A stretch of 64,000 bases of DNA from Mobula hypostoma (taxonomy: Eukaryota): contig NC_086097.1 of NCBI RefSeq assembly GCF_963921235.1, positions 139,998,001 through 140,062,000 of the forward strand. The letters are read 5' to 3'. Shown piece by piece: positions 3,080 to 64,000 of the stretch (the first letter of the stretch is position 1; every line of letters begins with the position of its first letter). Under the pieces are notes generated by a model. That model did not search any database and was not told the DNA's origin. It was given only the letters and a program-made list of their open reading frames with translations. The position numbers and the translations under genes are program-made.

Positions 3080-3845
3080 TATTCCAAATAAGGCCTCACC
3101 GGTGCCTTGTAAAGCCTCTACATTACAACCTTGCTTTTATAGTCCTCTCAAAATGAATGCTAACATCACATTTACTTTCCTCACCATTGACTTGACCTGC
3201 AAATTAACCTTTATGGAATCCTGCACGATCACTCCCAAGTCCCTTTGCACTTTAGGTTTTTGTATTTTCTCTCCATTTAGAAAATATGCTGCAGACTTCT
3301 TCTACCAAAGTGCATGACCATACACTTCCTGACACTATATTCCATCTGCCACTTCTTTGGTCCATTTTATCATGTGTCTCCAATTTCCTCGAAACCATAT
3401 TCTTAAAAATCGACTGCACCATCTTCCCAATCACTGAGGTCAGACTAACTGGCCTTTAATTTTCTTTCTTCTTCCTCTGACCCTTCTTGAAGAATGGAGT
3501 GACACTTGTAATTTTCCATTTCTTCGGATCCATGCCAGGATCAATTGATTCTTGAAAGATCATTGCTAATGCCTCCATAATCTCTTCAGCCACCTCTTCC
3601 AGAACTGTGGGTTGTGTACCATCTGTTCCAGGTGTCTTATCCACCTTCAAACCTTTCAGTTTCCCAAGAACCTTCTCCATAGTAATGGCAACTTCACACA
3701 CTTCTGCCTCCTGACATACTGCAAGTGTCTCCACAGTGAAGACTAATGCAAGATATTTATTTAGTTTGTTCTCCATTTCCTCCCCCACCCCCACATTACT
3801 CTTGCCTCTTTTTACATTTTATGTATCAAAGAAACTTTTGGTATC

Positions 3846-4035
3846 GATGAGGTGGAGGATAAATGCGTGGCTGAGGGATTGGAGCAGGGGGCAGGGATTC
3901 AAGTTTTTGGATCATTGGGACCTCTTTTGGCGCAGGTGTGACCTGTACAAAAAGGACGGGTTACACTTAAATCCTCGGGGGACCAATATCCTGGCAGGGA
4001 GATTAGCGGGGGCTACTGAGGTGACTTTAAACTAG
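3846..4035 (+). CDS. C-terminal remnant of CR1 ORF1 (SGNH/esterase-like domain)
   Basis: INAWLRDWSRGQGFKFLDHWDLFW...KDGLHLNPRGTNILAGRL...TLN*. DGLHL is the SGNH block V motif typical of CR1 ORF1. Confidence 0.85.
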
Positions 4036-7000
4036 AATGGTTGGGGGGTGGGAATCAAATTAAAGCGGCTAGGTGTGAGGAGGTTAGTTCACAACAGAGG
4101 GATGGGAACCAGTGCAGAGAGACAGAGGGGTGTAAAGTGAGCGTAGAAGCAAAAAGTACAAAGGGGAAAAGTAAAAGTGGCAGGCCGACAAATCCAGGGC
4201 AAGCATTAAAAAGGGCTAAGAGAGTTGTAAAAGAGTGCCTCAAGGCTTTATGTGTCAATGCAAGGAGCATTCGTAATAAGGTGGATGAATTGAAAGTGCA
4301 GATTGTTATTAATGATTATGATATAGTTGGGATCACAGAGACATGGCTCCAGGGTGACCAGGGATGGGAGCTCAACGTTCAGGGATATTCAATATTCAGG
4401 AGGGATAGACACGAAGGAAGGGGAGGTGGGGTGGCGTTGCTGGTTAAAAAAGAGATTAACGCAATAGAAAGGAAGGACATAAGCCGGGAAGATGTGGAAT
4501 CGATATGGGTAGAGCTGCGTAACACTAAGGGGCAGAAGACGCTGGTGGGAGTTGTGTACAGGCCACCTAACAGTAGTAGTGAGGTCGGAGATGGTATTAA
4601 ACAGGAAATTAGAAATGTGTGCAATAAAGGAACAGCAGTTATAATGGGTGACTTCAATCTACATGTAGACTGGGTGAACCAAATTGGTAAAGGTGCTGAG
4701 GAAGAGGATTTCTTGGAATGTATGCGGGATGGTTTTTTGAACCAACATGTCGAGGAACCGACTAGAGAGCAGGCTATTCTGGACTGGGTTTTGAGCAATG
4801 AGGAAGGGTTAATTAGCGATCTTGTCATGAGAGGCCCCTTGGGTAAGAGTGACCATAATATGGTGGAATTCTTCATTAACATGGAGAGTGACGTAGTTAA
4901 TTCAGAAACAAAGGTTCTGAACTTAAAGAGGGGTAACTTTGAAGGTATGAGACATGAATTAGCTAAGATAGACTGGCAAATGACACTTCAAGGATTGACG
5001 GTGGATATGCAATGGCAGGCATTTAAAGGTTGCATGGATGAACTACAACAATTGTTCATCCCAGTTTGGCAAAAGAATAAATCAAGGAAGGTAGTGCACC
5101 CGTGGCTGACAAGAGAAATTAGGGATAGTATCAATTCCAAAGAAGTAGCATACAAATTAGCCAGAGAAAGTGGCTCACCTGAGGACTGGGAGAAATTCAG
5201 AGTTCAGCAGAGGAGGACAAAGGGCTTAATTAGGAAGGGGAAAAAAGATTATGAGAGAAAACTGGCAGAGAACATAAAAACGGACTGTAAAAGCTTTTAT
5301 AGATATGTAAAAAGGAAAAGACTGATAAAGACAAATGTAGGTCCCCTGCAAACAGAAACAGGTGAATTGATTATGGGGAGCAAGGACATGGCAGACCAAT
5401 TGAATAATTACTTTGGTTCTGTCTTCACTAAGGAGGACATAAATAATCTTCCAGAAATAGTAAGGGACAGAGGGTCCAGTGAGATGGAGGAACTGAGCGA
5501 AATACATGTTAGTAGGGAAGTGGTGTTAGGTAAATTGAAGGGATTGAAGGCAGATAAATCCCCAGGGCCAGATGGTCTGCATCCCAGAGTGCTTAAGGAA
5601 GTGGCCCAAGAAATAGTGGATGCATTAGTGATAATTTTTCAAAACTCGTTAGATTCTGGACTAGTTCCTGAGGATTGGAGGGTGGCTAATGTAACCCCAC
5701 TTTTTAAAAAAGGAGGGAGAGAGAAACCGGGGAATTATAGGCCGGTTAGCCTAACGTCGGTGGTGGGGAAACTGCTGGAGTCAGTTATCAAGGATGTGAT
5801 AACAGCACATTTGGAAAGCGGTGAAATGATCGGACAAAGTCAGCATGGATTTGTGAAAGGAAAATCATGTCTGACGAATCTCATAGAATTTTTTGAGGAT
5901 GTAACTAGTAGAGTGGATAGGGGAGAACCAGTGGATGTGGTATATTTGGATTTTCAAAAGGCTTTTGACAAGGTCCCACATAGGAGATTAGTGTGCAAAC
6001 TTAAAGCACACGGTATTGGGGGTAAGGTATTGGTGTGGGTGGAGAATTGGTTAGCAGACAGGAAGCAAAGAGTGGGAATAAACGGGACCTTTTCAGAATG
6101 GCAGGCGGTGACTAGTGGGGTACCGCAAGGCTCAGTGCTAGGACCCCAGTTGTTTACAATATATATTAATGACTTGGATGAGGGAATTAAATGCAGCATC
6201 TCCAAGTTTGCGGATGACACGAAGCTGGGTGGCAGTGTTAGCAGTGAGGAGGATGCTAAGAGGATGCAGGGTGACTTGGATAGGTTGGGTGAGTGGGCAA
6301 ACTCATGGCAGATGCAATTTAATGTGGATAAATGTGAAGTTATCCACTTTGGTGGCAAAAATAGGAAAACAGATTATTATCTGAATGGTGGCCGATTAGG
6401 AAAAGGGGAGGTGCAACGAGACCTGGGTGTCATTATACACCAGTCATTGAAAGTGGGCATGCAGGTACAGCAGGCGGTGAAAAAGGCGAACGGTATGCTG
6501 GCATTTATAGCGAGAGGATTCGAGTACAGGAGCAGGGAGGTACTACTGCAGTTGTACAAGGCCTTGGTGAGACCACACCTGGAGTATTGTGTGCAGTTTT
6601 GGTCCCCTAATCTGAGGAAAGACATCTTTGCCATAGAGGGAGTACAAAGAAGGTTCACCAGATTGATTCCTGGGATGGCAGGTCTTTCATATGAAGAAAG
6701 ACTGGATGAACTGGGCTTGTACTCGTTGGAATTTAGAAGATTGAGGGGGGATCTGATTGAAACGTATAAGATCCTAAAGGGATTGGACAGGCTAGATGCA
6801 GGAAGATTGTTCCCGATGTTGGGGAGGTCTAGAACGAGGGGTCACAGTTTGAGGATAGAGGGGAAGCCTTTTAGGACCGAGGTTAGGAAAAACTTCTTCA
6901 CACAGAGAGTGGTGAATCTGTGGAATTCTCTGCCACAGCAAACTGTTGAGGCCAGTTCATTAGCTATGTTTAAAAGGAAGTTAGATATGGCCCTTGTGGC

Positions 7001-7040
7001 TACAGGGGTCAGGGGGTATGGAGGGAAGGCTGGGTTCTGA
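4020..7040 (+). CDS. CR1 ORF2: AP-endonuclease plus reverse transcriptase, uninterrupted. Frame open from 4020; no AUG before the endonuclease domain
   Basis: VNARSIRNK, GITETW, VYRPP, MGDFN, SDH (APE domain). [42 protein letters not shown] (RT domain). Stop TGA at 7038-7040. Confidence 0.95.
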   Translation, partial: GDFKLEWLGGGNQIKAARCEEVSSQQRDGNQCRETEGCKVSVEAKSTKGKSKSGRPTNPGQALKRAKRVVKECLKALCVNARSIRNKVDELKVQIVINDYDIVGITETWLQGDQGWELNVQGYSIFRRDRHEGRGGGVALLVKKEINAIERKDISREDVESIWVELRNTKGQKTLVGVVYRPPNSSSEVGDGIKQEIRNVCNKGTAVIMGDFNLHVDWVNQIGKGAEEEDFLECMRDGFLNQHVEEPTREQAILDWVLSNEEGLISDLVMRGPLGKSDHNMVEFFINMESDVVNSETKVLNLKRGNFEGMRHELAKIDWQMTLQGLTVDMQWQAFKGCMDELQQLFIPVWQKNKSRKVVHPWLTREIRDSINSKEVAYKLARESGSPEDWEKFRVQQRRTKGLIRKGKKDYERKLAENIKTDCKSFYRYVKRKRLIKTNVGPLQTETGELIMGSKDMADQLNNYFGSVFTKEDINNLPEIVRDRGSSEMEELSEIHVSREVVLGKLKGLKADKSPGPDGLHPRVLKEVAQEIVDALVIIFQNSLDSGLVPEDWRVANVTPLFKKGGREKPGNYRPVSLTSVVGKLLESVIKDVITAHLESGEMIGQSQHGFVKGKSCLTNLIEFFEDVTSRVDRGEPVDVVYLDFQKAFDKVPHRRLVCKLKAHGIGGKVLVWVENWLADRKQRVGINGTFSEWQAVTSGVPQGSVLGPQLFTIYINDLDEGIKCSISKFADDTKLGGSVSSEEDAKRMQGDLDRLGEWANSWQMQFNVDKCEVIHFGGKNRKTDYYLNGGRLGKGEVQRDLGVIIHQSLKVGMQVQQAVKKANGMLAFIARGFEYRSREVLLQLYKALVRPHLEYCVQFWSPNLRKDIFAIEGVQRRFTRLIPGMAGLSYEERLDELGLYSLEFRRLRGDLIETYKILKGLDRLDAGRLFPMLGRSRTRGHSLRIEGKPFRTEVRKNFFTQRVVNLWNSLPQQTVEASSLAMFKRKLDMALVATGVRGYGGKAGF

Positions 7041-7299
7041 GTTGGATGATCAGCCATGATCATAATAAATGGCGGTGCAGGCTCGAAGGGCCGAATGGCC
7101 TACTCCTGCACCTATTTTCTATGTTTCTATGTTTCTATGTATCCTGTTTAATACTATTGGCTAGCTTGCCTTCGTATTCTATCTTTTCCTTCTTTATGAC
7201 AGTAAAGCCACACTCAGTGAAGACCTGTATCACATGAGGTTGCATCAATATCCAATATTTTTCCTCATCATTCACTACACTGTTACACCTCTTTATTTT

Positions 7300-10127: not shown

Positions 10128-12036
10128 TTAGCGGAAGTTAGAGAAGTCGATGTTCATGCCATCAGGTTGGAGGCTACCCAGACGGAATATAAGATGTTGT
10201 TCCTCCAACCTGAGTGTGGCTTCATCTTTACAGTAGAGGAGGCCGTGGATAGACATGTCAGAATGGGAATAGGATGTGGAATTAAAATGTGTGGCCGCTG
10301 GGAGATCCTGCTTTCTCTGGCGGACAGAGCGTAGATGTTCAGCAAAGCGGTCTCCCAGTCTGCGTCGGGTCTCGCCAGTATATAAAAGGCCACATCGGGA
10401 GCACCGGACGCAGTATATCACCCCAGTCGACTCGCAGGTGAAGTGTTGCCTCACCTGAAAGGACTGTTTGGGGCCCTGAATGGTGGTAAGGGAGGAAGTG
10501 TAAGGGCATGTGTAGCACTTATTCCGCTTACACGGATAAGTGCCAGGAGGGAGATCGGTGGGGAGGGATGGGGGGGGGACGAATGGACAAGGGAGTTGTG
10601 TAGGGAGCGATCCCTGTGGAATGCAGAGGGGGGGAGAGGGAAAGATGTGCTTAGTGGTGGGATCCCGTTGGAAGTGGCGGAAGTTACGGAGAATAATATA
10701 TTGGACCCGGAGGCTGGTGGGCTGGTAGGTGAGGACCAGGGGAACCCTATTCCTAGTGGGGTGGCGGGAGGATGGAGTGAGAGCAGATGTACGTGAAATG
10801 GGGGAGATGCATTTAAGAGCAGAGTTGATAGTGGAGGAAGGGAAGCCCCTTTCTTTAAAAAAGGAAGACATCTCCCTCGTCCTAGAATGAAAAGCCTCAT
10901 CCTGAGAGCAGATGCAGCGGAGACGGAGGAATTGCGAGAAGGGGATGGTGTTTTTGCAAGAGACAGGGTGAGAAGAGGAATAGTCCAGATAGCTGTGAGA
11001 GTCAGTAGGCTTATAATAGACATCAGTGGATAAGCTGTCTCCAGAGACAGGGACAGAAAGATCTAGAAAGGGGAAGGAGGGGTCGGAAATGGACCAGGTA
11101 AACTTGAGGGCAGGGTGAAAGTTGGAGGCAAAGTTAATAAAGTCAACGAGTTCTGCATGCGTGCAGGAAGGAGCGCCAATGCAGTTGTCGATGTAGCGAA
11201 GGAAAAGTGGGGGACAGATACCAGAATAGGCACGGAACATAGATTGTTCCACAAACCCAACTAAAAGGCAGGCATAGCTAGGACCCAAACGGGTGCCCAT
11301 AGCTACACCTTTAGTTTGGAGGAAGTGGGAGGAGCCAAAGGAGAAATTATTAAGAGTGAGGACTAATTCCGCGAGACGGAGCAGGGTGGTGGGAGAGGGG
11401 AACTGATTAGGTCTGGAATCCAAAAAGAAGCGGAGAGCTTTGAGACCTTCCTGATGGGGGATGGAAGTATATAAGGACTGGACATACATGGTGAAAATAA
11501 AGCGGTGGGGGCCAGGGAACTTAAAATCATCGAAAAGTTTAAGAGCGTGAGAAGTGTCACGAACATAGGTCGGAAGGGATTGAACAAGGGGGGATAAAAC
11601 AGTGTCGAGGTATGCAGAAACGAGTTCGGTGGGGCAGGAGCAAGCTGAAACAATGGGTCTACCTGGACAGGCAGGTTTGTGGATCTTGGGTAGGAGGTAG
11701 AAACGGGAAGTGCGGGGTGTGGGAACTATAAGGTTGGTAGCAGTGGATGGGAGATCCCCTGAGCGGATAAAGTCGGTGATGGTGTGGGAGACAATGGCCT
11801 GGTGCTCCTTAGTGGGGTCATGATCGAGGGGTAAATAAGAGGAGGTATCCGCGAGTTGTCGCTGTGCCTCGGCAAGGTAGAGGTCAGTACGCCAGACTAC
11901 AACAGCACCCCCCTTATCGGCAGGTTTAATAATAAGGTTAGGATTAGTGCGGAGGGAGTGGAGAGCAGAGCGTTCTGAAGGAGTGAGGTTGGAATGGGGA
12001 CAAGGTGCGGTGAAGTCGAGACGGTTGATGTCCCAT
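10128..12036 (-). pseudogene. PLE ORF (RT, Cys-rich linker, GIY-YIG endonuclease): open reading frame but 5'-truncated and lacking catalytic Asp residues
   Basis: IIKPADKGGAVVV, YLLPKIHK, GVAMGT, CKRNKCYTC...C, VIYCVRCSRCGLLYTGET. Motif A reads FTMYV (normally D) and motif C reads YIDN (normally YIDD). Confidence 0.9.
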
Positions 12037-15000
12037 AGGGACATAGGCATAGGGAACCTTGGTTTTCAAGGAATATTGGCAATCTGGTTAAGAAAAAGAG
12101 AGAGGTGTATAGCAGGTATTGGCAACAAGGAACAAATGAGGTACTTGAAGAGTATAGAAAATGTAAGAAAATACTAAAGAAGGAAATAAGGAAGGCAAAA
12201 AGAAGACATGAGGTTGCTTTGGTGAATAATGTGAAGGTAAACCCGAAGGGTTTCTACAAGTATATTAAGAATGAAAGGATAGTAAGGGACAAAATTGGTC
12301 CCCTAGAAGATCAGAGTGGTCGTCTATGTGTGGAGCCTCACTAGATGAGGGAGATCTTAAACAGCTTTTTTGCATCAGTATTTACTCAGGAAACTGGCAT
12401 AAAGGGAAACAAGCAGTAGTGTCATGGAACATATAGAGATTAAAGAGGAGGAGGTGCTTGCTGCCTTACAGCGAATAAAGATAGATAAATCCCCCGGGCC
12501 TGACATGATATTTCCTCGGACCTTGAGGGAGACTAGTGTAGAGATTGCAGGGGCCCTGGCAGAAATATTGAAAATGTCCTTAGCCGCTGTAAAAGTAAAC
12601 CAGGTAATTACAGGCTGGTGAGCCTGACATCAGTAGTAGGTAAATTATTGGAAGGTGTTCTGAGAGATCGGATATACAAGTATTTGGACAGCCAAGGGCT
12701 GATTAAGGATAGTTAGCATGGCTTTGTGTGTGGTAGATCATGTTTAATGAATCTTGTAGAGTTTTTCGAGGAGGCTACCAAGAAAGTAGATGAAGGAAAG
12801 GCTGTGGATGTTGTCTACATGGACTTTGACAAGGTCCCACATGGGAGGTTAGTTCAAAAGGTTCAGACACTAGGTATCCATGGAGAGGTTGTAAACTGGA
12901 TTTGAAATTGGCTTTGTGGGAGAAGACAAAGAGTGGTATGGATGATTGCTTCTCAGACTGGAGGCCTGTGACTAGTGGTGTGCCTCAGGGATCTATGCTG
13001 GGACCATTGTTGTTTGTTGTCTATATCAATGATCTAGATGATAATGTGGTAAATTGGATCAGCAAGTTTGCTGATGACACTAAGATTGGAGGCGTTGTGG
13101 ACAGCAAGGAAGGCTTTCAAAGCTTGGCTTGCAGAGGGATCTGGACCAACTGGAAAAATGGCAGATGGAATTTAATGCAGACAAGTGTGAGGTGTTGCAT
13201 TTTGGAAGAACAAATCAAGGTAGGACGTACACAGTAAATGGTAGGGCACTGAGGAGTGCGGAGGAACAAAGGGATCTGGGAGTTCAGATACATAATTCCC
13301 TGAAAGTGGCATCACAGGGAGACAGGGTTGTAAAGAAGGCTTTTGGCATCCTGGCGTTCATAAATCAAAGTATTGAGTATAGGAGTTGGGATGTTATGGC
13401 GAGGTTGTATAAGACTATGGTGAGGTTGTATAAGACATTGGTGAGGCCAGATTTGGAGTATTGTGTGCAGTTCTGGTCACCTAACTATAGGAAGGATATC
13501 AGTAAGTTTGAAAGAGTGCAGAGAAGATTTACTAGGATGTTGCCGGGTCTTCAGGAGGTGAGTTACAGGGAAAGATTGAACAGGTTAGGACTTTATTCCT
13601 TGGAGTGTAGAAGAATGAGGGGGGGTTTGATAGAGGTTTACAAAATTATGAGGGGTATAGACAGAGTAAATGCGAGTAGGCTCTTTCCACTTAGATTAGG
13701 AGAGATAAATACGAGAGGACATGGATTTAGGGTGAAAGGGGAAAGGTTTAGGGGGAACTTCTTCACTCAGAGAGTGGTGGGAGTGTGGAACGAGCGGCCA
13801 TCTGATGTGGTAAATGCGGGGTCACTCTTAAGTTTTAAGAATAAATTGGATAGATACATGGATGGGAGAGGACTGGAGGGTTATGGACTGGGTGCAGGAC
13901 AATGGGACTAGCAGAATAATGTTTCAGCACAGACTAGAAGGGCCAAATGGCCTGTTTTCTGTGCTGTAGTGTTCTATGATTCTGTGGTTCTAGCACAAGA
14001 ACCAACAGTACAAACAAATCAAAGCTTTTGAAAACCATGAAATGCATAAAAACAAAATTGTTTGCAACAAATTACTACATGGTTTTATGAAAGAAAGTGG
14101 CAATCATGTGCTGTTTGCTCTGGAAACACTGATTTAGTGAAACAAAATACTGATTTATGATTTGCAGGTCTGACTAAAAGACATTAAGAGTCAGGAGCAG
14201 AATTAGGCCATTCAGCTCTTTGAATGTGCTCTGCCATTCCATCATGGCTGATTTATTATCCCTCAACCCCATTCTCCTGCCTTCTCCCTGTAACCTTTGG
14301 TGCCCTCAATCAAGCTCCATTTTAAATATACCCAAGCAACACACACAAAATGCTGGAAGAACTCAGTAGTCCAGGCAGTGTCTATGGAAAAAAGTACAAT
14401 CGATGTTTTGGGCTGAAACCCTTTGGCAGGACTGGAGAAAAAAAGCCGAGGAGTAGATTTAAAAGGTGGGTGGAGGGGAGAGAAAAACACCAGGTGATAG
14501 GTGAAGCCTGGAGAGGGAGGGATGAAGTAAAGAGCTGGGAAGTTTTTTGGTGAAACTGAAGGCCATGTAAGAAAGAAAAAGGGGAGAGGAGCACCAGAGG
14601 GAGGAGATGGGCGGGCAAGGAGATAAGGTATGTGAGGGAAAGGGGATGGGAAATGGTGAAAGGTCGGGGGGGGGGGCAGCATTACCAGAAGTTTGAGAAA
14701 TTGATGTTATGCCATCAGTTTGGAGGCTATCCAAATGGAATATAAGGTGTTGTTCCTCCAGCTTAAGTGTGGCCTCATCACAACAGTGGAGGAGGGCATG
14801 GATGGATATATGGGAATGGGAGGTGGAATAAAGATGTGGGGCCACTGGGAGATTCCGCTTGTTCTGGCGGACGGAGCATTGATGCGAAGCGGTCTCCCAG
14901 CTGACTCACAGGTGGTGTTGCCTCACCCAGAAGGACTATTTATGCCCCTGAGTGGTAGTGAGGGAGGAGGTGTAGGGTCAGACGTAGCACTTGTTCTACT

Positions 15001-19606: not shown

Positions 19607-22200
19607 TTAGATTAGATTAGATTCAACTTTATTGTCATTGTGCCGAGTACAGATACACAGCCAATGAAATGCAGTTAGCATCTAACCAGAAATGCAAAGA
19701 ATGGTGTTATTTACAAAATAACTGCGAATAAAAAGTAAGTGCTACAGCACACAAATATAAAAGTACTGAGACAGTACAATATGGGTACAATACTGCTTAG
19801 CGCTGTGATGTGAGGTTCAGCAGAGTCACAGCCTCAGAGAAGAAGCTCTTCCTGTGCCTGCTGGTGCGGGAGCGGAGGCTCCTGTAGCGCTTACCGGATG
19901 GCAGGAGAGTAAAAAGTCCATGGTTAGAGTGAGATGCATCCTTGATAATGCTTTTTGCCCTGCCCAGGCAGCGTTTATGGTAGATGTTCTCAATGGTGGG
20001 CAATTGGGTGCCGATAATCCACTGGGCAGTTTTCACCACACACTGGAGTTGCTTTGCAGTCCGATACGGGACAATTGCCATACCACACTGAGATGCAGTT
20101 GGTGAGTATGCTCTCAATGGTACAGCGGTAAAAGTCCGACAGTATCCTAGGACAGAGGTGAGCTTTCTTGATGCTCTGCAGGAAATAAAGGCGCTTTTTT
20201 GATCAGGATGGAGGAGTTCAGGGACCAGGTGAGATCGTCGGAAATGTGGACACCAAGGAATTTGAAGCTTGATACACGCTCCACTACAGCTCCATTGATG
20301 TAGATGGGGACATGAGTATGGCTCCTAGCATGCCTGAAGTCCACAATGATCTCTTTGGTCTTCTGGGTGTTAAGGGCCAGGTTGTTGTCGGCACACCACG
20401 CGGCCAGGTGCTGGACCTCATCCCTGTAGGCTGTCTCGTCATCCCCTCTGATCAGACCAACCACTGTGGTGTCGTCTGTGAACTTGTACAGGAACGCAGT
20501 CATAGGTGAAAAGGGAGTACAGAAGAGGGTTCAGCACACAGCCTTGAGGCACGCCAGTGTTCAGGGTGAGAGTGGAGGAGGAGAGGTTGTCTAACTTAAC
20601 TGATTGGGGTCTATTAGTCAGAAAGTCCAAGGTCCAATTGCAGAGGGATGAGCTGATACCAAGCTGGCGAAGTTTGGCGATCAGCTTGGAGGGGATCACA
20701 GTATTGAATGCCGAACTAAAGTCAATGAACAGCTTTCTGACGTAAGAGTTGAGGGCAGAGTGAAGTGCCGTGGAGGTGGTGTCCTCTGTTGACCTGTTGG
20801 TGCAATAGGCAAATTGATGGGGATCCAGGGTAGTGGGCAGACAGGATTTCAGATGTGATAGAACCAGTCTCTCAAAGCACTTTGCAATGAAGGGGGTGAG
20901 TGCAACTGGGCGGAAGTCATTCAGGCTTGTGGCAGTGGAATGCTTCAGCACTGGCGCGATGGTGACAATCTTGAAGCTTGTGGGGACAACTGCCTGGGCC
21001 AGGGACAGATTGAAAATGTCCGTGAAGACCCCGGCCAACTGCTCTGCACAGACTCTGAGCACACGGTCAGGTATTTCATCCGGATCAGCTGCCTTCCGTA
21101 TATTCACCCCGCTCAGGGTGGCGCAAACATCGGAGGTGGAAAGTGAGAGAGGCAGTTCACTAGGTGGGAGATCCGCTTTGAGGGTGACCTTGTTCTCTCG
21201 GTCAAAGCAAGCGAAGAAGTAATTGAGCTCATTAGGGAGGGAAGCAGAGCTGGAAGTGGGAGCAGTACTAGGTGGTTTGAAGTCTGTAATGACCTGTATG
21301 CCATGCCACATGCGCCGGGGGTCCGAGGAGTTGAAATGCTCCTCGATTCTCCGTTTGTATATGTGTTTAGCCTGAGACATTAGACATTCCCCTCCTCAGA
21401 TTGGCCCTGGCAGAGCTGTAAGCCTCCCGGTCTCCAGACCCAAAAGCTGAATCTCTGGGTTTGAGCAGGAGGCGAACTTCTCTGTTCATCCATGGTTTCT
21501 GATTGGGGAAAACTTTTATTTTTGTGATGTCACTCTATCCACACACTTGTTGATGTGCTCAAGGACAGAGTTGGTATATAAATCAATGTTAATCTGAGAG
21601 TCTGTGGTGGCATGGGCAGTAAACGCGCTCCAGTCTGTGTGCTGGAATTAGTGCTGAAGAGCAGAGTCAGCACCCTCCAGCCGGATCTTAATAGTCTTCA
21701 TTGTGGGTTTCACACGTTTAATGACCGGGCTATACTTGGGAAGCAGAAACAATGAAAGATGGTCGGACTGTCCCAGGTGGGAGAGGGTAGTGGCTTTGTA
21801 AGCGTCAGCCACATTTGTGTAGACATGATCTAAGGTTTTATTTCCCTTTGTGGTGCGTGATACATTTTGGTAAAATCTTGGAAGCATGGTACGTAGGTTA
21901 CAATGATTGAAGTCCCCAGCGACAATAAAGGCTCCGTCTGGATGCAATGTCTGCAGCTTGCTAATAGCGGTACTGAGGTCTTTCATGGCTACTTTAGCAT
22001 TAGCATCTGGTGGTACATAAACTGCGACAGCAATGATGCATGTAAGCTCCCGTGGTTGATAAAAAGGTCTGCACTTAATAATCAGGTATTCCAGATCAGC
22101 AGAGCATAATTGTCAGCAATGGTAGAGTTAGTACACCATGATCGATTCACAAAGATGCATAAACCGCCTCCCCTACTTTTACCTGTCGCTGTTGCAGCTC
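19607..22200 (-). mobile_element. Rex1/Babar-clade LINE (APE plus RT, decayed), inserted in a CR1 3' fragment (19565-19606 and 22203-22670, +)
   Basis: IVAGDFN, TLDHVYTN, SDH, FRPVALT, LDPHQFAY, FIDFSSAFNT, GVPQGCVL, KF.DDTTVVGLI, LNTQKTKE.IVDFR. AATAAA and (ATCTA)n tail. Confidence 0.9.
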
Positions 22201-26766: not shown

Positions 26767-28990
26767 TATGTTAGGTCACAGATCTCTCAGTGGGTGAGCA
26801 CCTGGGGGACGGTGACCACCGCTCCCTGGCCTTTAGCATTATTATGGAAAAGGATAGAATCAGAGAGGACAGGAAAAGTTTTAATTGGGGAAGGGCAAAT
26901 TATGAGGCTGTAAGGCTAGAACTTGCGGGTGTGAATTGGGATGATGTTTTTGCAGGGAAATGTGCAATGGACATGTGGTTGATGTTTAGGGATCTCTTGC
27001 AGGATGTTAGGGATAAATTTGTCCCGGTGAGGAAGATAAAGAATGGTAGGGTGAAGGAACCATGGGTGACAAGTGAGGTGGAGAATCTAGTCAGGTGGAA
27101 GAAGGCAGCTTCCATGAGGTTTAGGAAACAAGGATCAGATGGGTCTATTGAGGAATATAGGGAAGCAGGAAAGGAGCTTAAGAAGGGGCTGAGAAGAGCA
27201 AGAAGGGGGCATGAGAAGGCCTTGGCGAGTAGGGTAAAGGAAAACCCCAAGGCATTCTTCAATTATGTGAAGAAAAAAAAAGATGACAGGACCGATTAGA
27301 GATAAAGGTGGGAAGATGTGCCTGGAGGCTGTGGAAGTGAGCGAGGCGCTCAATGAATATTTCTCTTCGGTATTCACCAATGAGAGGGAACTTGATGAAA
27401 GTGAGGACAATATGAATGGGGTTGATGTTCTGGAGCATGTTGATATTAAGGGAGAGGAGGTGTTGGAGTTGTTAAAATACATTAGGATGGATAAGTCCCC
27501 GGGGCCTGACGGAATATTCCCCAGGCTGCTCCAGGAGGCGAGGGAAGAGATTGCTGAGCCTCTGGCTAGGATCTTTATGTCCTTGTTGTCCACGGGAATG
27601 GTACCAGAGGATTGGAGGGAGGTGAATGTTATCCTCTTGTTTAAAAAAGGTAGGGATAGTCTGGGTAATTATAGACCAGTGAGCCTTACGTCTGTGGTGG
27701 GAAAGCTGTTGGAAAAGATTTTTAGAGATAGGATCTATGGGCATTTAGAGAAATATGGTCTGATCAGGGACAGTCAGCATGGCTTTGTGAAGGGCAGATC
27801 ATGTCTAACAAGCCTAATAGAGTTCTTTGAGGAGGTGACCAGGCATATAGATGAGGTGTGTGTGATCTACATGGATTTTAGTAAGGCATTTGACAAGGTT
27901 CCACACGGTAGGCTTATTCAGAAAGTCAGAAGGCACGGGATCCAGGGATGTTTGGCCAGGTGGATTCAGATTTGGCTTGCCTGCAGAAAGCAAAGGGTTG
28001 TGGTGGAGGGAGTACATTCGGATTGGAGGGTTGTGACTAGTGGTGTCCCACAAGGATCGGTTCTAGGACCTCTACTTTTTGTGATTTTTATTAACGACCT
28101 GGATGTGGGGGTAGAAGGGTGGGATGGCAAGTTTGCAGACGACACAAAGGTTGGTGGTGTTGTGGATTGTGTAGAGGATTGTCGAAGAGTGCAGAGAGAC
28201 ATTGATAGGATGTAGAAGTGGGCTGAGAAGTGGCAGATGGAGTTCAACCCTGAGAAATGTGAGTTGGTACACTTTAGAAGGACAAATTCCAAGGCGGAGT
28301 ACCAAGTAAATGGTAGGTTATTTGGTAGTGTGGAGGAGCAGAGGGATCTGGGGGTACATGTCCACAGATCCCTGAAAGTTACCTCACAGGTGGATAGGGT
28401 AGTTAAGAAAACTTATGGGGTGTTAGCCTTCATAAGTCGAGGGATAGAGTTTAAGAGTGGAGAGGTAATGATGCAGCTCTATAAAACACTGGTTAGGCCA
28501 CACTTGGAGTACTGTGTCCACTTCTGGTCACCTCACTATAGGAAGGACGTGGAAGCATTGGAAAGGGTACAGAGGAGATTTACCAGGATGCTGCCTGGTT
28601 TAGAGAGTATGCATTATGATCAGAGTTTAAGGGAGCTAGGGCTTTACTCTTTGGAGAGAAGGAGGATGAGAGGAGACATGATAGAGCTATACAAGATATT
28701 AAGAGGAATAGGTAGAGTGGACCCAGTGCCTCTTCCCCAGGGCACCACTGCTCAATACAAGAGGACATGGCTTTAAGGTATGGGGTGGGAAGTTCAAAGG
28801 GGATATTAGAGGAAGATTTTTTACTCAGAGAGTGGTTGGTGCCTGGAATGCACTGCCTGAGTCAGTGGTGGAGGCAGATACACTAGTGAAGTTTAAGAGG
28901 AATTTAAGGTGGGGGGTTATATGGGAGGCAGGGTTTAAGGGTCGGCACAACATTGTGGGCCAAAGGGCCTGTACTGTGCTGTGCTGTGTT
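26767..28990 (+). mobile_element. 5'-truncated CR1 LINE with few disablements
   Basis: ORFs 26790-27299, 27283-28215 and 28237-28776 carry RT motifs. 5-bp TSD AAGTT (26762-26766 and 28991-28995). Confidence 0.9.
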
Positions 28991-29562: not shown

Positions 29563-30504
29563 ATAGTTAGATAGGTACTTTATTGATCCAAAAGGAAATT
29601 ACAGTGTCATAGTAGCATTACAGGTGCACAGATATACAAAATTAAAGAGAAGTAAGAAAGAATAAAAAAATAAGTTACCCGAAACAGTCCAACAGGAGGG
29701 GTCATTGCTTCCCCAGTTTATAGGTTGACTCATTGTAGAGCCTTATGGCCAAGGGTAAGAATGACCTCAAATAGCGTTATTTGGAGCAGCGCAGTTGTCT
29801 TAGTCTGTTACTATACGTGCTCCTCTGTTCAGCAAAGGCTGCACGCAGAGGATGAGAAACATTGTCCACAATTGCCGGGATTTCCAGGAGGGTCCTTTGT
29901 TCTGCCACAGCCTCCAGTGTGTCTAGTTTGACTCCTATAACAGAGCCAGCTTTTCTAATCAGTTTATTGAGTCTGTTGGCATCACCCGTGTTGATGCCAT
30001 TGCCCCAGCACACCACCACTTGGAAGATTGTACTGGTGACAACAGACTGGTAGAACATTTGAAGTAGAGGCCTGCATACTCCAAAGAACCTCAGTCTCCT
30101 CAAGAAGTAGAGGTGACCCTGGCCCTTCTTGTACACAGTCTCTGTGCTCCACTCAAGTTTGTCATCCAGGTGCATCCCCAGGTACTTGTAGGTCCTCACC
30201 ATCAATAATAACAGGGAGCAGTTCAGGCTTAGTTTTCTTAAAGTCCATCACCATCTCCTTTGTCTTACTGATGTTGAGCTGCAGATGGTTCAGCTCACAC
30301 CATTTGTCAAAGTTCTCCACAAAGTATTCATCCTCCTGTCCTCCCTTTATACATCAAACTATTGTTGAGTCATCCGAGAATTTCTGCGGATGATATGACT
30401 CAGTACGAGGTATACAGGGTAAACAGGGAGGGAGCCCTGTGGGGCCCCAGTGCTGCTTATAGCCGTGTCTGACACACAGCTTTGAAGCCACACAAACTGT
30501 GGTC
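29563..30504 (-). mobile_element. 5'-truncated Rex1/Babar LINE
   Basis: KFSDDSTIVG, YKYLGMHLDDKLEWS, LYFLRRLR, HPL. Tail GATCAATAAAGTACCTATCT. Confidence 0.85.
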
Positions 30505-31415
30505 TCCTGAGTAGCATTAGCAAACCTCCCGGCCAGGATATTGGTTCCCCTCCAGTTCAGGTGCAACCGGTCCCTCTTGTAACAGTTACCCCTTGGCCAG
30601 AAAAGGTTCCAATGATCAAAGAACTTGAAACCGTGCCCATTGCACCGTCTCCTCAGCCACTCATTCATATGTGCTATCGTCACATTCCTACCTGCTCTAG
30701 CCCTCGGCACCGAGAGTAATCCAGAGAGTCTTACCTTGGAAGTCCTTCCCTTCAGCCTCTTTTCTAACTCTGTATGCTCACTGTGTGGGACTGCTTCCCT
30801 TTTTCCTGTCTATGTCATTGGTGCCAATATGCACCACAACCTCTGGCTGTTCGCTCTCCCACTTGAGAATATCCTGCAGCCACACCAATACATCTTGGAC
30901 CCTACCACCTCGGACATAACACACCATCCTGGTGTCTCGAATTGTGGCCAGAGAATCTCACCTCTCTGTCTCCCTAATTATCAAGTCCAAAATCACTACC
31001 GAGCTGCCTGACTTTACCCTTACCTACTGAGCCTCAGAGCTGGCCACAGTGCCACCAGCCCGACTGCTGCTGCTGTGCCCAGCAGTATCCAAAGAGGTAT
31101 TCTTGTTACTGAAGGGAATGGCTTCCGGGGATCCCTGCATTGACTTCTTCATCCCCTTACCTCTCCTAGTGGTCATCCATCTACTGTCTGAAGCCCGTAC
31201 TCTGGGTGTGACCACCTCTTCAAAAGTCTCATCTATAATGTTTTTAGCCTCCTGGATGCTCCTGAGTACATCCAACTCCAGTTCTAATTCCTTGAGCTGG
31301 TCAGTCCCCCATTAGATCATCAGCCCGAGTTGTCAGTTCTGTTTCACTCATCATAGGTTTTACCTGACTTCCGGAGTTTTCTGTTAATATTTTGGTTTCT
31401 CAGCATCTCATAGTA

Positions 31416-38146: not shown

Positions 38147-40216
38147 CCATAGTCATAGTCATACTTTATTGATCCTGGGGGAAGTTGGTTTTCATTACAG
38201 TTGCACCATAAATAATAGTAATAAAACCATAAATAGTTAAATAGTAATATGTAAATTATGCCAGGAAATAAGTCCAGGACCAGCCTATTGGCTCAGGGTG
38301 TCTGACCCTGTAAGGGAGGAGTTGTAAAGTTTGATGGCCACAGGCAGGAATGACTATCTATAACGCTCTGTGTTGCATCTCGGTGGAATGAGTCTCTGGC
38401 TGAATGTACTCCTGTGCCCACCCAGTACATTATGTAGTGGATAAGAGACATTGTCCAAGATGGCATGCAACTTGGACAGCATCCTCTTTTCAGACACCAC
38501 CGTCAGAGAGTCCAGTTCCATCCCCACAACATCACTGGCCTTACGAATGAGTTTGTTGATTCTGTTGGTGTCTGCTACCCCCAGCCTGCTGCCCCAGCAC
38601 ACAACAGCAAACATGATGGCACTGGCCACCAGAGACTCGTAGAACATCCTCAGCATCGTCCGGCAGATGTTAAAGGACCTCAGTCTCCTCAGGAAATAGA
38701 GACGGCTCTGACCCTTCTTGTAGACAGCCTCAGTGTTCTTTGACCAGTCCAGTTTATTGTCAATTCGTATCCCCAGGTATTTGTAATCCTCCACCATGTC
38801 CACACTGAAACAGGGGTCACCGGTACCTTAGCTCTCCTCAGGTCTACCACCAGCTCCTTAGTCTTTTTCACATTAAGCTGCAGATAATTCTGCTCACACC
38901 ATGTGACAAAGTTTCCTACCGTAGCCCTGTACTCAGCCTCATCTCCCTTCCTGATGCATCCAACTATGGCAGAGTCATCAGAAAACTTCTGAAGATGACA
39001 AGACTCTGTGAAGTAGTTGAAGTCCGAGGTGTAAGTGGTGAAGAGAAAGGGAGACAAGACAGTCCCCTGTGGAGCCCCAGTGCTGCTGATCACTCTGTCG
39101 GACACACAGTGTTGCAAGCACACGTACTGTGGTCTGCCAGTCAGGTAATCAAGAATCCATGACACCAGGGAAGCATCCACCTGCATCACTGTCAGCTTCT
39201 CCCCCAGCAGAGCAGGGCGGATGGTGTTGAACGCACTGGAGAAGTCAAAAAACATGACCCTCACAGTGCTCGCTGGCTTGTCCAGGTGGACATAGACACG
39301 GTTCAGCAGGTAGATGATGGCATCCTCAACTCCTAGTCGGGGCTGGTAGGCGAACTGGGGGGGATCTATGTGTGGCCTGACCATAGGTCGGAGCAGCTCC
39401 AGAACAAGTCTCTCCAGGGTCCTCATGATGTGGGAGGTCAATGCCACCGGTCTGTAGTCATTGACGCCGCTGGGGCACTGCATTCTTTGGCACAGGGACG
39501 AGGTAGGACGTCTTCCACAGCACAGGAACCCTCCGGAGCCTCAGGCTCAGGTTGAATACACGGCGAAGTACTCCACATAGCTGAGGGGCACAGGCTTTGA
39601 GCACCCTGGTACTGACACCATCTGGTCCTGCAGCCTTGCTTGGGTTGAGACGTTTCAGCTGTCTTCTCACCTGTTCAGCTGTGAAGCCCACCGTGGTGGT
39701 TTCGTGTGGGGAAGGGGTATAGTCATGAGAGCAAGGTGGGGCACTGTGAGGAAGGGTAGGAGGGGAGAGTGGAACATGTGTTGGTTGGGGGCGGACAACA
39801 GATGGCTCGTGGGGAATGGGCAGGGGTCATAATGTCAAATCTGTTAAAGAACAGGTTAAGTTCATTGGCCCTGTCCACACTGCCTTCGGCTCCTCTGTTG
39901 CTAGTTTGCGGGAACCTAGTGATGGTCCTCATCCCCCTCCTGACCTCTCTCGTTGTTCTGCTGGAGTTTCCACTCAAGCTTCCTCCCATACCTGTCTTTC
40001 AGGTCCCTCTGTATTGCCCTCAGCTCCTCCCTATTTCCATCTCTGAACACCCTCTTTTTAGCGTTCAGGATGTCCTTAATGTCCTTTGTTACCCATAGCT
40101 TGTTATTTGAATAACAAAGGACAGTTCTTGTCAGAACATTGCAGTCCACACAGAAGTTGATGTAATCAGTGATGCACTCTGTGAGCCCATCAATATCCTC
40201 TCCATGTGGCTCACTG
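38147..40216 (-). mobile_element. 5'-truncated Rex1/Babar LINE
   Basis: KAAGPDGV, DYRPVALT, FFDFSSAFNTI, GAPQGTVLSP, KFSDDSAIVG, YKYLG. AATAAAG(TATGAC)n tail. Confidence 0.9.
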
Positions 40217-57679: not shown

Positions 57680-60600
57680 TGTTATGGAACTGGAGCTGCA
57701 GCTTGATGATGTCAGCTCATAGGGGCAAATGCAGAGGCCATAGATAAGAGCTACATGGAGGTAGTCACGCCCAAGTTTCAGGAGGCAGGTACCTGAGTGA
57801 CTCTCAAGAGAGCAAATTTAAATAGGCAGCAAAAGAAAATAAGTGTACCACTTGGATAAAGTTGGGGTGGGGGGTGGGGTGATGGAGAACCTATCAGGGG
57901 AAACCATAGTGACCAGGGGTGTCTGGCACTGTGGTTCAGAAGAGAAGAGCTGATTCCATAATTAAAGGAGCAGAAAGCAGATAGTATGCTGTCTCCCAGG
58001 TGCTAGGGTCAGGGATGTCTCAGAAAGGGTCCACGACATTCTAAAGGAGGAGGGTGAACAGCTGGAAGTCGTGGTACATAATGGTGCCAACAACACAGGT
58101 AGAAAAAGGCAGGAGTTTCTAAAGATAGAATATAGAGTGTTAGGTATAAAGTTGAAAACAGGACCTCCAGGGTAGTAACCTCTTGACTGCTCCCTGTGCC
58201 ACGTGCCAGTGAAGGCAAGAATAGGATGATTTGGCATGATAATGCATGGCTGAAGAATTGGGGCAGGGGGCAGGGTTTCAGATTTCAGGATCATTGGGAT
58301 CTCATCTAGGGAAGATGTGATCTGTAGAAAAGGACAGGTTACACCTCAACCCAAGGGAAACCAATATCCTTGCCGGCAGGTTTGCTAGAGCTGTTGGAGA
58401 GGGTTTAAACTAATTTGGCAAGGGGATGGGAACCAGGGTGATAGGGCTGAGGATGGGAAGTTTGTTATACAACTAAATGCAGTGTGTAATGGGACTGAGA
58501 GGAAGGACAAGCAAATTGCAGTCAGTGGGATGAGCTGAAGTGTAACTTGGGGGCCAAAATCTAAAAGGATGATGAACACAGGTCTGAAGGTGCTATATTT
58601 AAATACACACAGTATACGGAATAAGGTGAATAATCCTGAGACGCAGTTAGAGATTTGCAGGTATAATGTTGTGGGCCATCTCTGAGTCATGGCTGAAAGA
58701 AGAACATAGTTGGGGGCTTATCATCCAAGGATGCACATTGTATCGAAACGACAGGAAGAGAGGCAGAGGGGGTGGGGTGGCTCTTTTGGTAAAAATGAAA
58801 TCAAATCTTTAGAAAGAGGTGACATAGGATCAGAAGATGTAGAATCCTCGTGGGTAGAGTTAAGAAACTGCAAGAGTAAAAGGACCCTGATGTGAGTTAT
58901 ATACAGGTTTCCAAACAATAACCAGGATGTGGGCTACAAATTACAATGGAAAATAGAAAAAGAATGTAAAAAGCACAATATTGCAATAATGATGGGGATT
59001 TCAATATGCAGGTAAATTGGGAAAATCAGAATGGTGCTGGATCCCAAGAGAGGGTAGTAGTAGGACACCTACAAGATGACTTTTTAAGAACAGCTTGAGG
59101 TGGAGCCCTCCAGGGGGAACAGCATTTCTGGATTGGGTGTTATGTAATGACCCAGATTTGATCAGGGAGCTTAAGGTGAATGAACCCATCGGAGCCAGTG
59201 ATCATAATATGATAGAACTCGCCCAGCACGTTGAGGAGGAGAAGTTAAAATTGGATGTATCAGTATTACAGTGCAGTAAAGGAAATTACAGAGGCATGAG
59301 AGAGGAGCTGGCTAAAGTTGATTGGAAGGGGACACTAGCAGGGATGATGGCAAAACAGCAATGACTGGTGTGTCTGCAAGAAATTCAGAAGGCAAAGGAA
59401 AGATGAAGAAGTATCCTAAAGGGAGGATGAGGAATCATGGCTGACAAGGGGAGTCAAAGACAGCATAAAGGCAAAAGAGAGGGCATATAATATTGCAAAA
59501 ATTAGTGGGAAGGTAGAGGTTTGGAAAGCTTTTAAAAACCAGCAGAAGGCAATTTTAAAAGCTGTAAAGAGAGAAAAGATGTCACATGATGGTAACTTAG
59601 TCTATAATATAAAAATGTTTTAAACGTTTTTTTTTCAGATAGTAAAAGAGACAAGAGTGGATATCAGATCGCTGGAAAATCAAACTGGAGGGGTAGTAAT
59701 GGGGGACAAACTTAATTGGTATTTTGCATCAGTCTTCACTGGGAAATACAAGAGTGCCAGGGGACAAAAGTGAGTATCGTTGCTATTACTTCGGAGATGT
59801 TTGGGAAGCTGAAAAATCAGGAGGTAGATAAGTCACCTGGACCAGATGGACTATACCCCAGGGTTCTGAAAGAGGTAGCTGAATAGATCGTGGAAGCATT
59901 AGAAATGATATTTCAAGAATCACTGAATTCTGGAATGGTTCCAGAGGACTGAAAACAGCAAATGTCACTTCATTCTTTCCGAAGGGGGGGAGGGAGAAGA
60001 AAGGCAATTATAGGCCTGTTAGGCTGACTTCAGTGGTTGGAAAGATGATGGGAGTCTATTATTAAGGATGAGGTTTCGGGTTACTTTGCGGCATGTGATA
60101 GAACGGGCAAAAGTCAGCATGCTTTTCTAAAAGGGACATTTTGCCTGATCAATCTGTTGGAATTCTTTGAAGAAATATCAGACAGGATAGACAAAGGAGA
60201 GTCAGTGAATGTTATCTATTTGGTTGTTCAGAAGGCTTTTGACAAGTTGCTGCACATGAGGCTGCTTTACAAGATGAGAGCTCGTGGTACTACAGGGAAG
60301 ATACCCACATGGATAGAAGATTGGCTGACTAGCAGGACTGGGAATAAAGGGGGTGTGTACTGTCTGGCTGCCACTGACTAGTGGTGTGCCACAGAGGTCA
60401 GTGTTAGAACCGCTTCTTTTCATGTTGTGTGTCAATAATTTGGAAAGGCACAATGATGTGTTAATGGTCTGAATGATGGAATTAGTGGTTTTGTGGACAA
60501 CACTAAGATAGGTGGGGGGCAGGTAGTGTTGAGGGATCAGGGTGTGTGCAGTAGGACTTAGGCAGACTGGGGAAATGGGCAAAGAAGTGGCAGGTGGAAT

Positions 60601-61362
60601 ATTGTGTAGGAAATTGTATGGTTATGTTTAAACAGTGGTGGAAAGAGTAAAGGCAAGGGTTATTTTCTGAATGTGAAGAAAATTCAAAGATCAGAGGTAC
60701 AAAGGGGCTTGGGAGTTCTCGTGCAGGATTCCCTAAAGGTTAACTTGCAGGTTGAGTAGGTGGTAAGGAAGGGAAATGCAATTTTACCATTCATTTTGAG
60801 AGGACTAGAATATAAAAGCAAGGATGTAATGCTGAGGCTTTATAAGGCATTGGTCAGACTTCACTTGGAGTCTTGTGAGCAGTTTTGGGCCCCTATCTAA
60901 GAAAAGATGTGCTGGCATTGGAGAGGGTCCAAGGAGGTTGGTGGAATGATCCCAGGAATGAAAGGGTTAACATATGAGGTGTGTTTGATGGCTCTGGGCC
61001 CATAATCACTGCAGTTTGTAAGATGGAGCGAGTGGGGATTTCACTGAAAACTATCAAATATTGAAAGGCCAAGTCAGAGTGGATGTGGAGACGATGTTTC
61101 CTATAGTGGGGGAGTCTAGGACCAGAGGGCACAGCCTCAGAAACAGAACAGAGATGAGGACATTTTCTTTTTAATCAGAGGGTGGTGAATCAGGAATTCA
61201 TTACCACAGATAGAAGTGCAGGCCAAGTCATTGGCTATATTTAAGGCAGAGGTTAATAGGTTTTTGATTATCAGGGCATCAAAGGTACAGGGAGAAGACA
61301 GGAGAATGGGGTTGAGGAGGGTAATGAATCAGTCATGGTGGAATGGCCTAATGCTACTCCTA
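57680..61362 (+). mobile_element. Near full-length decayed CR1 LINE (ORF1 and ORF2) in the last BMPER intron
   Basis: ELELQLDD, EVVTP, VCCLPGARVRDV, LHLNPR.TNILAGRF...EGLN* (ORF1). TTTAAAC junction at 58404-58410. APE and RT remnants. Confidence 0.88.
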
Positions 61363-62672: not shown

Positions 62673-62803
62673 CCAGACAGCTCATCTCTGGCTTCCAGTG
62701 CACATGCACACCTTCCCTCTGACAGGCCCGTGTGTAGGCAATTAGAGACTCGCAGTAACAATTCTTGTGCATGGGGCACTCACACATGTCAGTGACACAG
62801 GAT
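62673..62803 (-). CDS. BMPER: BMPER penultimate coding exon, C8 domain ([43 protein letters not shown]), 131 nt
   Basis: tttcccacag acceptor and G|gtgagt donor, phase 2 to 1; matches [33 protein letters not shown]. Confidence 0.95.
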
Positions 62804-62838
62804 CTGTGGGAAAGATCACAGGAGAAGTAAGAGCAAAA

Positions 62839-64000
62839 TGTCCACATCCACACCCACCATCCCTGTCCACATCCAACTCCGCTGTTCCCATCTCACATCC
62901 ACCTTTCCCTGTCCACATCCAATTCATCTCACATCCACCATCCCTGTCCACATCCAACTCATCTCACATCCATCATTCCCTGTCCACATCCAACTCCGCC
63001 TTTCCAAATCTCACATCCGTCATTCCCTGTCCACATCCAACTCATCTCACATCCATCATTCCCTGTCCACATCCAACTCATCTCACATCCATCATTCCCT
63101 GTCCACATCCAACTCTGCGTTTCCATCTCACATCCATCATTCCCTGTCCACATCCAACTCCACGTTTCTATCTCACATCCATCATTCCCTGTCCACATCC
63201 AACTCATCTCACATCCATCATTGCCTGTCCACATCCAACTCCGCGTTTCCATCTCACATCCATCATTCCCTGTCCACATCCAACTCCACCATCCCCATCT
63301 CACATCCATCATTCCCTGTCCTCATCCAACTCCACCGTCCCCATCTCACATCCACCATCCCTGTCCACATCCAACTCCACCGTCCCCATCTCACATCAAC
63401 CATCCTTGTCCACATCCAACTCCACCGTCCCCATCTCACATCCACCATCCCTGTCCACATCCAACTCCACCGTCCCCATCTCACATCCACCATCCCTGTC
63501 CACATCCAACTCCACCGTCCCCATCTCACATCCACCATCCTTGTCCACATCCAACTCCACCGTCCCCATCTCACATCCACCATCCCTGTCCACATCCAAC
63601 TCATCTCACATCCATCATTCCCTGTCCACATCCAACTCATCTCACATCCATCATTCCCTGTCCACATCCAACTCATCTCACATCCACCATCCCTGTCCAC
63701 ATCCAACTCCACCGTCCCCATCTCACATCCACCATCCCTGTCCACATCCAACTCCACCGTCCCCATCTCACATCCACCATCCCTGTCCACATCCAACTCC
63801 ACCGTCCCCATCTCACATCCACCATCCCTGTCCACATCCAACTCATCTCACATCCATCATTCCCTGTCCACATCCAACTCATCTCACATCCATCATTCCC
63901 TGTCCACATCCAACTCCGCGTTTCCATCTCACATCCATCATTACCTGTCCACATCCAACTCCACGTTTCTATCTCACATCCACCATCCCTGTCCACATCA
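62839..64000. repeat. Minisatellite array of interspersed 35/36-bp and 45/46-bp units, continuing past the window end
   Basis: Core CATCTCACATCCA(C/T)CAT(T)CCCTGTCCACATCCAACT, with or without a 10-bp insert CCACCGTCCC or CCGCGTTTC variants. Confidence 0.95.

Follow-up and report, generated by a model that had tools for sequence, protein, structure and literature searches.

The window, a 64,000-nucleotide stretch of Mobula hypostoma DNA (contig NC_086097.1, positions 139,998,001 to 140,062,000), contains a CR1-type LINE whose first open reading frame ends in an in-phase slippery heptamer, U_UUA_AAC, directly followed by the stop codon, with the ORF2 frame lying at -1. Comparison of this junction with those of its relatives indicates that CR1 LINEs with an esterase ORF1 quite probably make ORF2 by programmed -1 ribosomal frameshifting, as an ORF1-ORF2 fusion. 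An earlier note on this DNA had proposed such a gag-pol-like fusion, and the comparative evidence given below supports it. The relevant features are the following.

3845-7140 (+): young 5'-truncated CR1-type LINE copy, its 5' boundary set against a full-length copy; many near-identical copies lie in genome G000
3847-4035 (+): 3' remnant of ORF1, the C-terminus of an SGNH/GDSL esterase (PF13472 on the full ORF1), ending Leu-Asn-stop
4017-4019 (+): TGA closing the -1 frame, which confines any shift to 4020-4032
4020-7040 (+): ORF2, -1 frame, 1006 codons, first ATG at 4644
4026-4032 (+): slippery heptamer U_UUA_AAC
4033-4035 (+): ORF1 stop directly 3' of the heptamer, TAG here and TAG or TAA across groups
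4033-4238 (+): basic, variable, stop-free linker from the shift site to the APE domain (31-107 codons in 20 stop-free loci)
4037-4063 (+): out-of-frame AUG mini-ORF of 8 codons, not conserved between families
4039-4052 (+): G-rich tract, candidate stimulator, with a core G-run at 4043-4047 (+11 to +15 after the heptamer)
about 4296-4856 (+): APE endonuclease in ORF2 (PF03372, PF14529)
about 5715-6368 (+): reverse transcriptase in ORF2 (PF00078)
7113-7140 (+): 3' tail of 8-nt microsatellite repeats, seen in the sequence
58404-58413 (+): the same heptamer, then TAA, in a copy (58225-60907) of an older, decayed CR1 family

The young copy is truncated at 3845, and only the last 62 codons of its ORF1 are left. 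In full-length genomic copies ORF1 is 311 amino acids long, with N-terminal Cys pairs, the motifs GDS, GTN and DxxH, and an SGNH esterase domain (PF13472, E 3e-16). Its nearest named homologues are from rays and sharks, an ORF1 tree places it with amniote, frog and fish ORF1s, and the ORF2 protein shares 39% identity, across 640 columns, with a swallow protein belonging to the same ORF1 cluster. A 3' tail of microsatellite repeats is a CR1 trait. The one 8-nt candidate for a target-site duplication lies away from the 5' end of the window copy. We note that an older, inverted CR1 ORF2-like fragment (3456-3818, -) lies directly upstream of the young copy, and that in a third CR1 ORF1 fragment (30502-30668, -) similarity ends right before the heptamer position and is followed by unrelated sequence.

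The end of ORF1 reads ACT TTA AAC TAG, so that TTTAAAC stands in phase just before the stop, and this is the only in-phase X_XXY_YYZ in the 1,317 codons of ORF1 (311) and ORF2 (1006). The ORF2 frame begins two codons ahead of the heptamer, overlapping ORF1 by only 16 nt; a -1 slip would enter it intact, open over 4020-7040 (1006 aa). Its first ATG, at 4644, is codon 209 and lies inside the APE domain; the nearby AUG at 4037 lies in another frame, which reaches a stop after 8 codons. A G-rich tract begins 6 nt 3' of the heptamer. The earlier note had read the phase, the frame entered, the missing early AUG and the out-of-frame AUG in the same way. The same junction is found in 30 of 30 top-scoring genomic copies that were fetched, but this identity is partly built in because the copies were picked by similarity to the query; ORF2 is open to the end of the locus in 28 of them, and its first Met is 206 codons past the heptamer in 29. 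The junction is not a private mutation of the window copy.

On this reading, most ribosomes would terminate once they meet the UAR that follows Leu-Asn, and ORF1p would be released (311 aa here). A minority would slip one base back on U_UUA_AAC, where the Leu tRNA would pair anew with UUU and the Asn tRNA with AAA. Slipped ribosomes would have read Leu-Asn, would go on with Leu-Glu-Trp and would translate the basic linker and then APE-RT. Their product would be an ORF1p-ORF2p fusion some 1,310 aa long, with ORF1p in fixed excess over it, as with Gag and Gag-Pol. The pause would most likely come from the adjacent stop, through slow release and possibly a slip of the P-site Asn-tRNA with UAR in the A site, and also from the G-run, which at +11 to +15 would sit at the mRNA entry channel and to which a protein may bind. 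In Rous sarcoma virus the stop lies directly after the heptamer. Such pausing at the adjacent stop and G-run, as well as the slippage and its rate, are what we infer from the sequences, and the pause is the weakest step of the explanation.

The earlier note had taken the G-rich tract for a stimulator. Its position is conserved: all 17 vertebrate-type groups have 4-5 G of 5 at +11 to +15, whereas G makes up 32% of the sequence further downstream. But no conserved hairpin, quadruplex or long-range duplex accompanies it, so it is no more than a candidate stimulator; the G-run could instead reflect a conserved linker Gly. None of the 17 vertebrate-type groups has a stable 3' hairpin (z -1.7 to +1.3), nor do the two families of the window show one (z -0.1 to +1.1), and by these predicted folds a canonical viral-type 3' structure 5-9 nt downstream appears to be absent from the vertebrate-type groups. 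Quadruplex prediction is positive for only 6 of the 19 groups, no consistent long-range pairing partner was found across 19 elements, and Rfam gave no match apart from two weak ones far below cut-off. A duplex between the G-run and the 3' UTR came no higher than fourth in the scores for the window copy, and this pairing did not recur. Of the two divergent loci, L092 has a predicted hairpin at the G-run position (z -3.3), so that in this one locus a classical hairpin may take the place of the G-run; the L152 fold is weak (z -0.2).

Conservation was measured with a pattern that fixes amino acids only (G-L-H-L-N, 18 codons, L-N-stop), and the scan of G000 (3.48 Gb) gave 15,935 matches, compared with 4 for the reversed control. 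The exact T TTA AAC TAR is present at 14,247 of these 15,935 ORF1 ends. The Leu-Asn pair 18 codons upstream, under the same pattern, is spelled TTA AAC in just 42 of 15,935, and has six spellings among 31 loci. A first base other than T was seen at 468 of 14,715 ends, scattered over families among the 100 matches listed. These counts are of copies, not independent events, and junctions were therefore grouped: the fixed pattern was present in 49 of 101 loci, and the medoids of the resulting 19 junction groups were compared. The first T, the A at the third base of the Leu codon and the C at the third base of the Asn codon are each kept in 18 of the 19 medoids, and the stop is TAG in 8 and TAA in 11. 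T is the last base of the codon before Leu in 48 of 49 junctions, and this codon encodes nine different amino acids. Free synonymous variation of the Leu-Asn codons, which the earlier note had named as evidence against a frameshift, was not found across families, and conservation at the junction, judged from these alignments, appears to exceed what coding needs. TGA, which would keep Leu in the -1 frame, is never the stop in the 19 medoids.

The relation of the two frames is kept as well. About ten families, mostly with 36-58% identity between their APE domains, supplied 31 loci, and in 26 of these the first APE match is in the -1 frame; in the 20 of 49 loci with a stop-free linker the -1 frame is retained over linkers of 31-107 codons. 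Upstream of the heptamer the -1 frame is open for just 1-8 codons in 42 of 49 junctions. The older family represented in the window has the column majority TTTAAACTAA at 58404-58413, with 23-26 of 26 sequences agreeing per position. In one old decayed family, whose alignment has many indels and several mis-registered rows, 14 of 29 loci have APE in the -1 frame, and the heptamer in its exact form could be placed in 14 of 30.

A comparison of the junction across CR1 elements, which the earlier note had proposed, finds the heptamer, stop and phase kept in sturgeon-type and amniote-type CR1. Among the 120 homologues listed, about half of which are one distant family, 103 are intact at the end, and LN is the final dipeptide in 92 of them; named proteins with this ending come from sharks, rays, sturgeon, eel, Xenopus, lizards, turtles, soft-shell turtle and swallow. 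The amino-acid-only pattern found at least 72 loci in metagenomes, and a locus was called CR1-type if its ORF1 similarity reached 58 bits or if a match to ORF2 lay downstream, a threshold set after the table had been seen. Among the matches listed, TTTAAAC with TAR is present in 10 of 10 CR1-type loci and TTTAAAC in 0 of 62 others; seven of the ten are from one assembly, and there are four assemblies in all. Seven of the listed CR1 loci have an APE match, which is in the -1 frame in 5 of them. Over 120 aa L095 shows no difference from one member of a sturgeon cluster, and among the matches listed L114 is closest to a swallow protein and L108, L115, L128 and L149 are closest to a turtle protein; the divergent CR1 loci L092 and L152 have the same TTTAAAC and TAR signal. 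We note that P0023 (labelled Pseudomonas aeruginosa) and P0113 (Symploca), 64% and 33% identical to the query, resemble LINE ORF1 esterases and are probably animal DNA in bacterial assemblies.

More distant ORF1 relatives suggest that slip compatibility is kept while the site itself changes, a suggestion made from proteins, with the DNA spelling taken from the dipeptides. Of 170 proteins examined, the 129 with an intact end formed 82 clusters at 65%, and the last or second-last dipeptide was scored against the 16 dipeptides that fit X_XXY_YYZ. A slip-compatible ending is present in 48 of the 82 clusters, compared with 9.2% at upstream positions, and in a wider window of 21-31 in 69 of 82 compared with 45%; 34 clusters have no terminal slip-compatible dipeptide, and 13 have none even in the wider window. 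The cluster ends are not independent trials, as the query profile is rich in LN ends and kin share ends. Endings LN, GN, KN, GF and FF alternate inside supported clades of these protein trees, with GN and KN sisters at 100/95 and KN in 10 rows of a starred 11-row clade, and these endings match the four shiftiest heptamers given in the covered part of PMC5009743. The invariance of the KN and GN ends in alignments A3 and A4 is circular, their rows being hand-chosen, and was set aside.

In the KN group ORF1 continues about 12 codons beyond the frame switch. P0272 of this group is a read-through protein, running from the esterase into the start of APE, and its near-twin P0219 has a 14-codon tail; the tail and the read-through can be encoded together in the -1 relation at 13 of 14 codons, while the best +1 arrangement gives 8 and 500 shuffles give at most 9. 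Read-through copies that pass from the esterase into the linker or APE at the junction are P0026, P0036, P0112, P0272 and P0277. No clean ORF1-ORF2 fusion was present among the 9 matches of a longer-protein search. DNA of the GN, KN, GF and FF groups was not found in viral or prokaryote genome contigs; neither a CR1 junction nor an ORF1 was seen in the viral contigs, where L163 gave a single weak match at 24%, and nothing was found in the prokaryote ones. In P0282, P0307, P0285 and P0305, ORF1 ends in EN or SN, so that Asn is kept in a dipeptide that is not that of a classical heptamer; these endings may point to single-tRNA slippage. The ORF1s of P0290, P0224 and P0280 look internally duplicated or extended, and P0290 passes from one esterase end into another esterase start.

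Programmed -1 frameshifting would explain the phase, the tight overlap, the T that is free of coding need, the kept frame and the switches across clades. Against it, L-N-stop in frame 0 together with F-K-L in frame -1 would alone fix most of the junction bases. Dual coding of this kind is the basis of the strongest competing explanation, still an unlikely one, in which ribosomes terminate and then reinitiate, independently of AUG, at a non-AUG codon near the stop. The stop does adjoin the site and no structural stimulator was found; SART1 uses a stop-start (covered part of PMC3708506), and ORF2 of L1 is thought to use an unusual AUG-independent initiation (covered part of PMC5009743). Dual coding would, however, require the start to lie within the 1-8 variable codons upstream, no near-cognate codon is present at a shared position in 16 linkers, the GN, KN, GF and FF switches lose F-K-L while keeping slip compatibility, and the ORF1 of the KN group runs past the switch. 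An in-frame AUG within -30 to +60 of the ORF1 stop is present at 1 of 16 loci, at +54, and a UAAUG or AUGA stop-start, with the AUG adjoining the stop, was rejected on the same loci.

It is very unlikely that ORF2 has an AUG of its own, in the linker or on a spliced or internally initiated RNA, with TTTAAACTAR and the G-run serving as some other signal, for example in RNP assembly. An in-frame Met is present in 7 of the 20 stop-free linkers and seems to be shared in some old families, and the TAG families have a CAG/TAG-like acceptor; the other 13 linkers have none, the positions differ (18, 25, 31, 37, 38, 47 and 51), and in the young family the first AUG is codon 209. The earlier note's statement that no in-frame AUG precedes APE thus holds for the young family but not for some older ones, in which the Met positions are unconserved and the heptamer is retained. 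A start downstream of the junction would not require the frame from heptamer to APE to be kept over linkers of different length, as it is. A splice acceptor at TAG is ruled out because AG is not conserved, the stop being TAA in 11 of 19 groups; contigs of 4 runs cover the window element and are uninformative on splicing. Slippage by RNA polymerase, adding one base in T3A3 to give a minority of in-frame fusion transcripts, is hardly credible: rare genomic read-through copies exist (P0112, P0272), but the runs are only 3 nt, fused transcripts would be copied back and yet most genomic ends keep the exact site, and dependence on codon phase is a ribosomal feature.

Like the U_UUA_AAC site of the coronavirus IBV and the gag-pol site in Rous sarcoma virus (as described in the covered part of PMC5009743), the CR1 junction has an in-phase X_XXY_YYZ and a -1 polymerase frame without its own AUG, and an excess of structural protein is predicted for it; in contrast to them, no hairpin was found in the vertebrate CR1 families, and the CR1 junction has an overlap of only 16 nt, a G-run at a fixed position and a LINE as its host element. 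CR1 is unmentioned in the same part of that paper. Frameshifting by -1 is stated for ORF2 of the Dictyostelium L1-clade non-LTR elements TRE5-A and TRE3-A (covered part of PMC5911963), which share with CR1 the non-LTR nature and an APE-RT ORF2 in -1 and differ in clade, host and ORF1. SART1, with its UAAUG stop-start, and L1, with its AUG-independent ORF2, resemble CR1 in having a bicistronic LINE RNA and low ORF2 level (same partial sources), but they make a separate ORF2p by initiation, whereas CR1 has no in-frame AUG at the stop and a fusion is predicted. Vertebrate CR1 elements with a type IVB ORF1 (zinc finger/leucine zipper and esterase), as described in the covered parts of PMC4120745, PMC4316615 and PMC3905857, have Cys motifs, a coiled coil and an SGNH esterase in common with the window element, as well as an APE-RT ORF2 and 5' truncation. 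The main text of these three papers, as far as covered, lacks the word "frameshift" and does not describe the junction signal. The literature also included parts of PMC4255032, PMC6609765, PMC4700185 and PMC11835228, and no report of CR1 frameshifting was found in the full-text literature covered. We put at roughly a third the chance that an earlier suggestion of it exists; most likely the mechanism is a known one, here in a clade and an architecture that the literature covered does not describe it for.

If frameshifting is correct, it answers how CR1, a very common animal family, expresses its second gene, namely by a retrovirus-like slip, and it extends the gag-pol analogy to a major non-LTR clade. 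A fusion protein would also change models of CR1 RNP assembly and cis preference, and ORF2 annotations would be corrected to have no initiator Met. The junction may be a natural frameshift cassette of very high copy number in vertebrate genomes, with a non-canonical stimulator, and a conserved frameshift offers a direct and cheap test of the ORF2 expression question.

The window contains several other repeats. Copies of an element at 1-2440 and 10128-12065 (-), with a 645-aa frame that has a weak GIY-YIG match, we take to be Penelope-like elements. Reverse transcriptase fragments of other LINE families are present at 20442-21395 (-), 38692-39540 (-) and 27271-28212 (+), and the repetitive, C-rich sequence at 62746-64000, open in three frames, is probably a tandem repeat.
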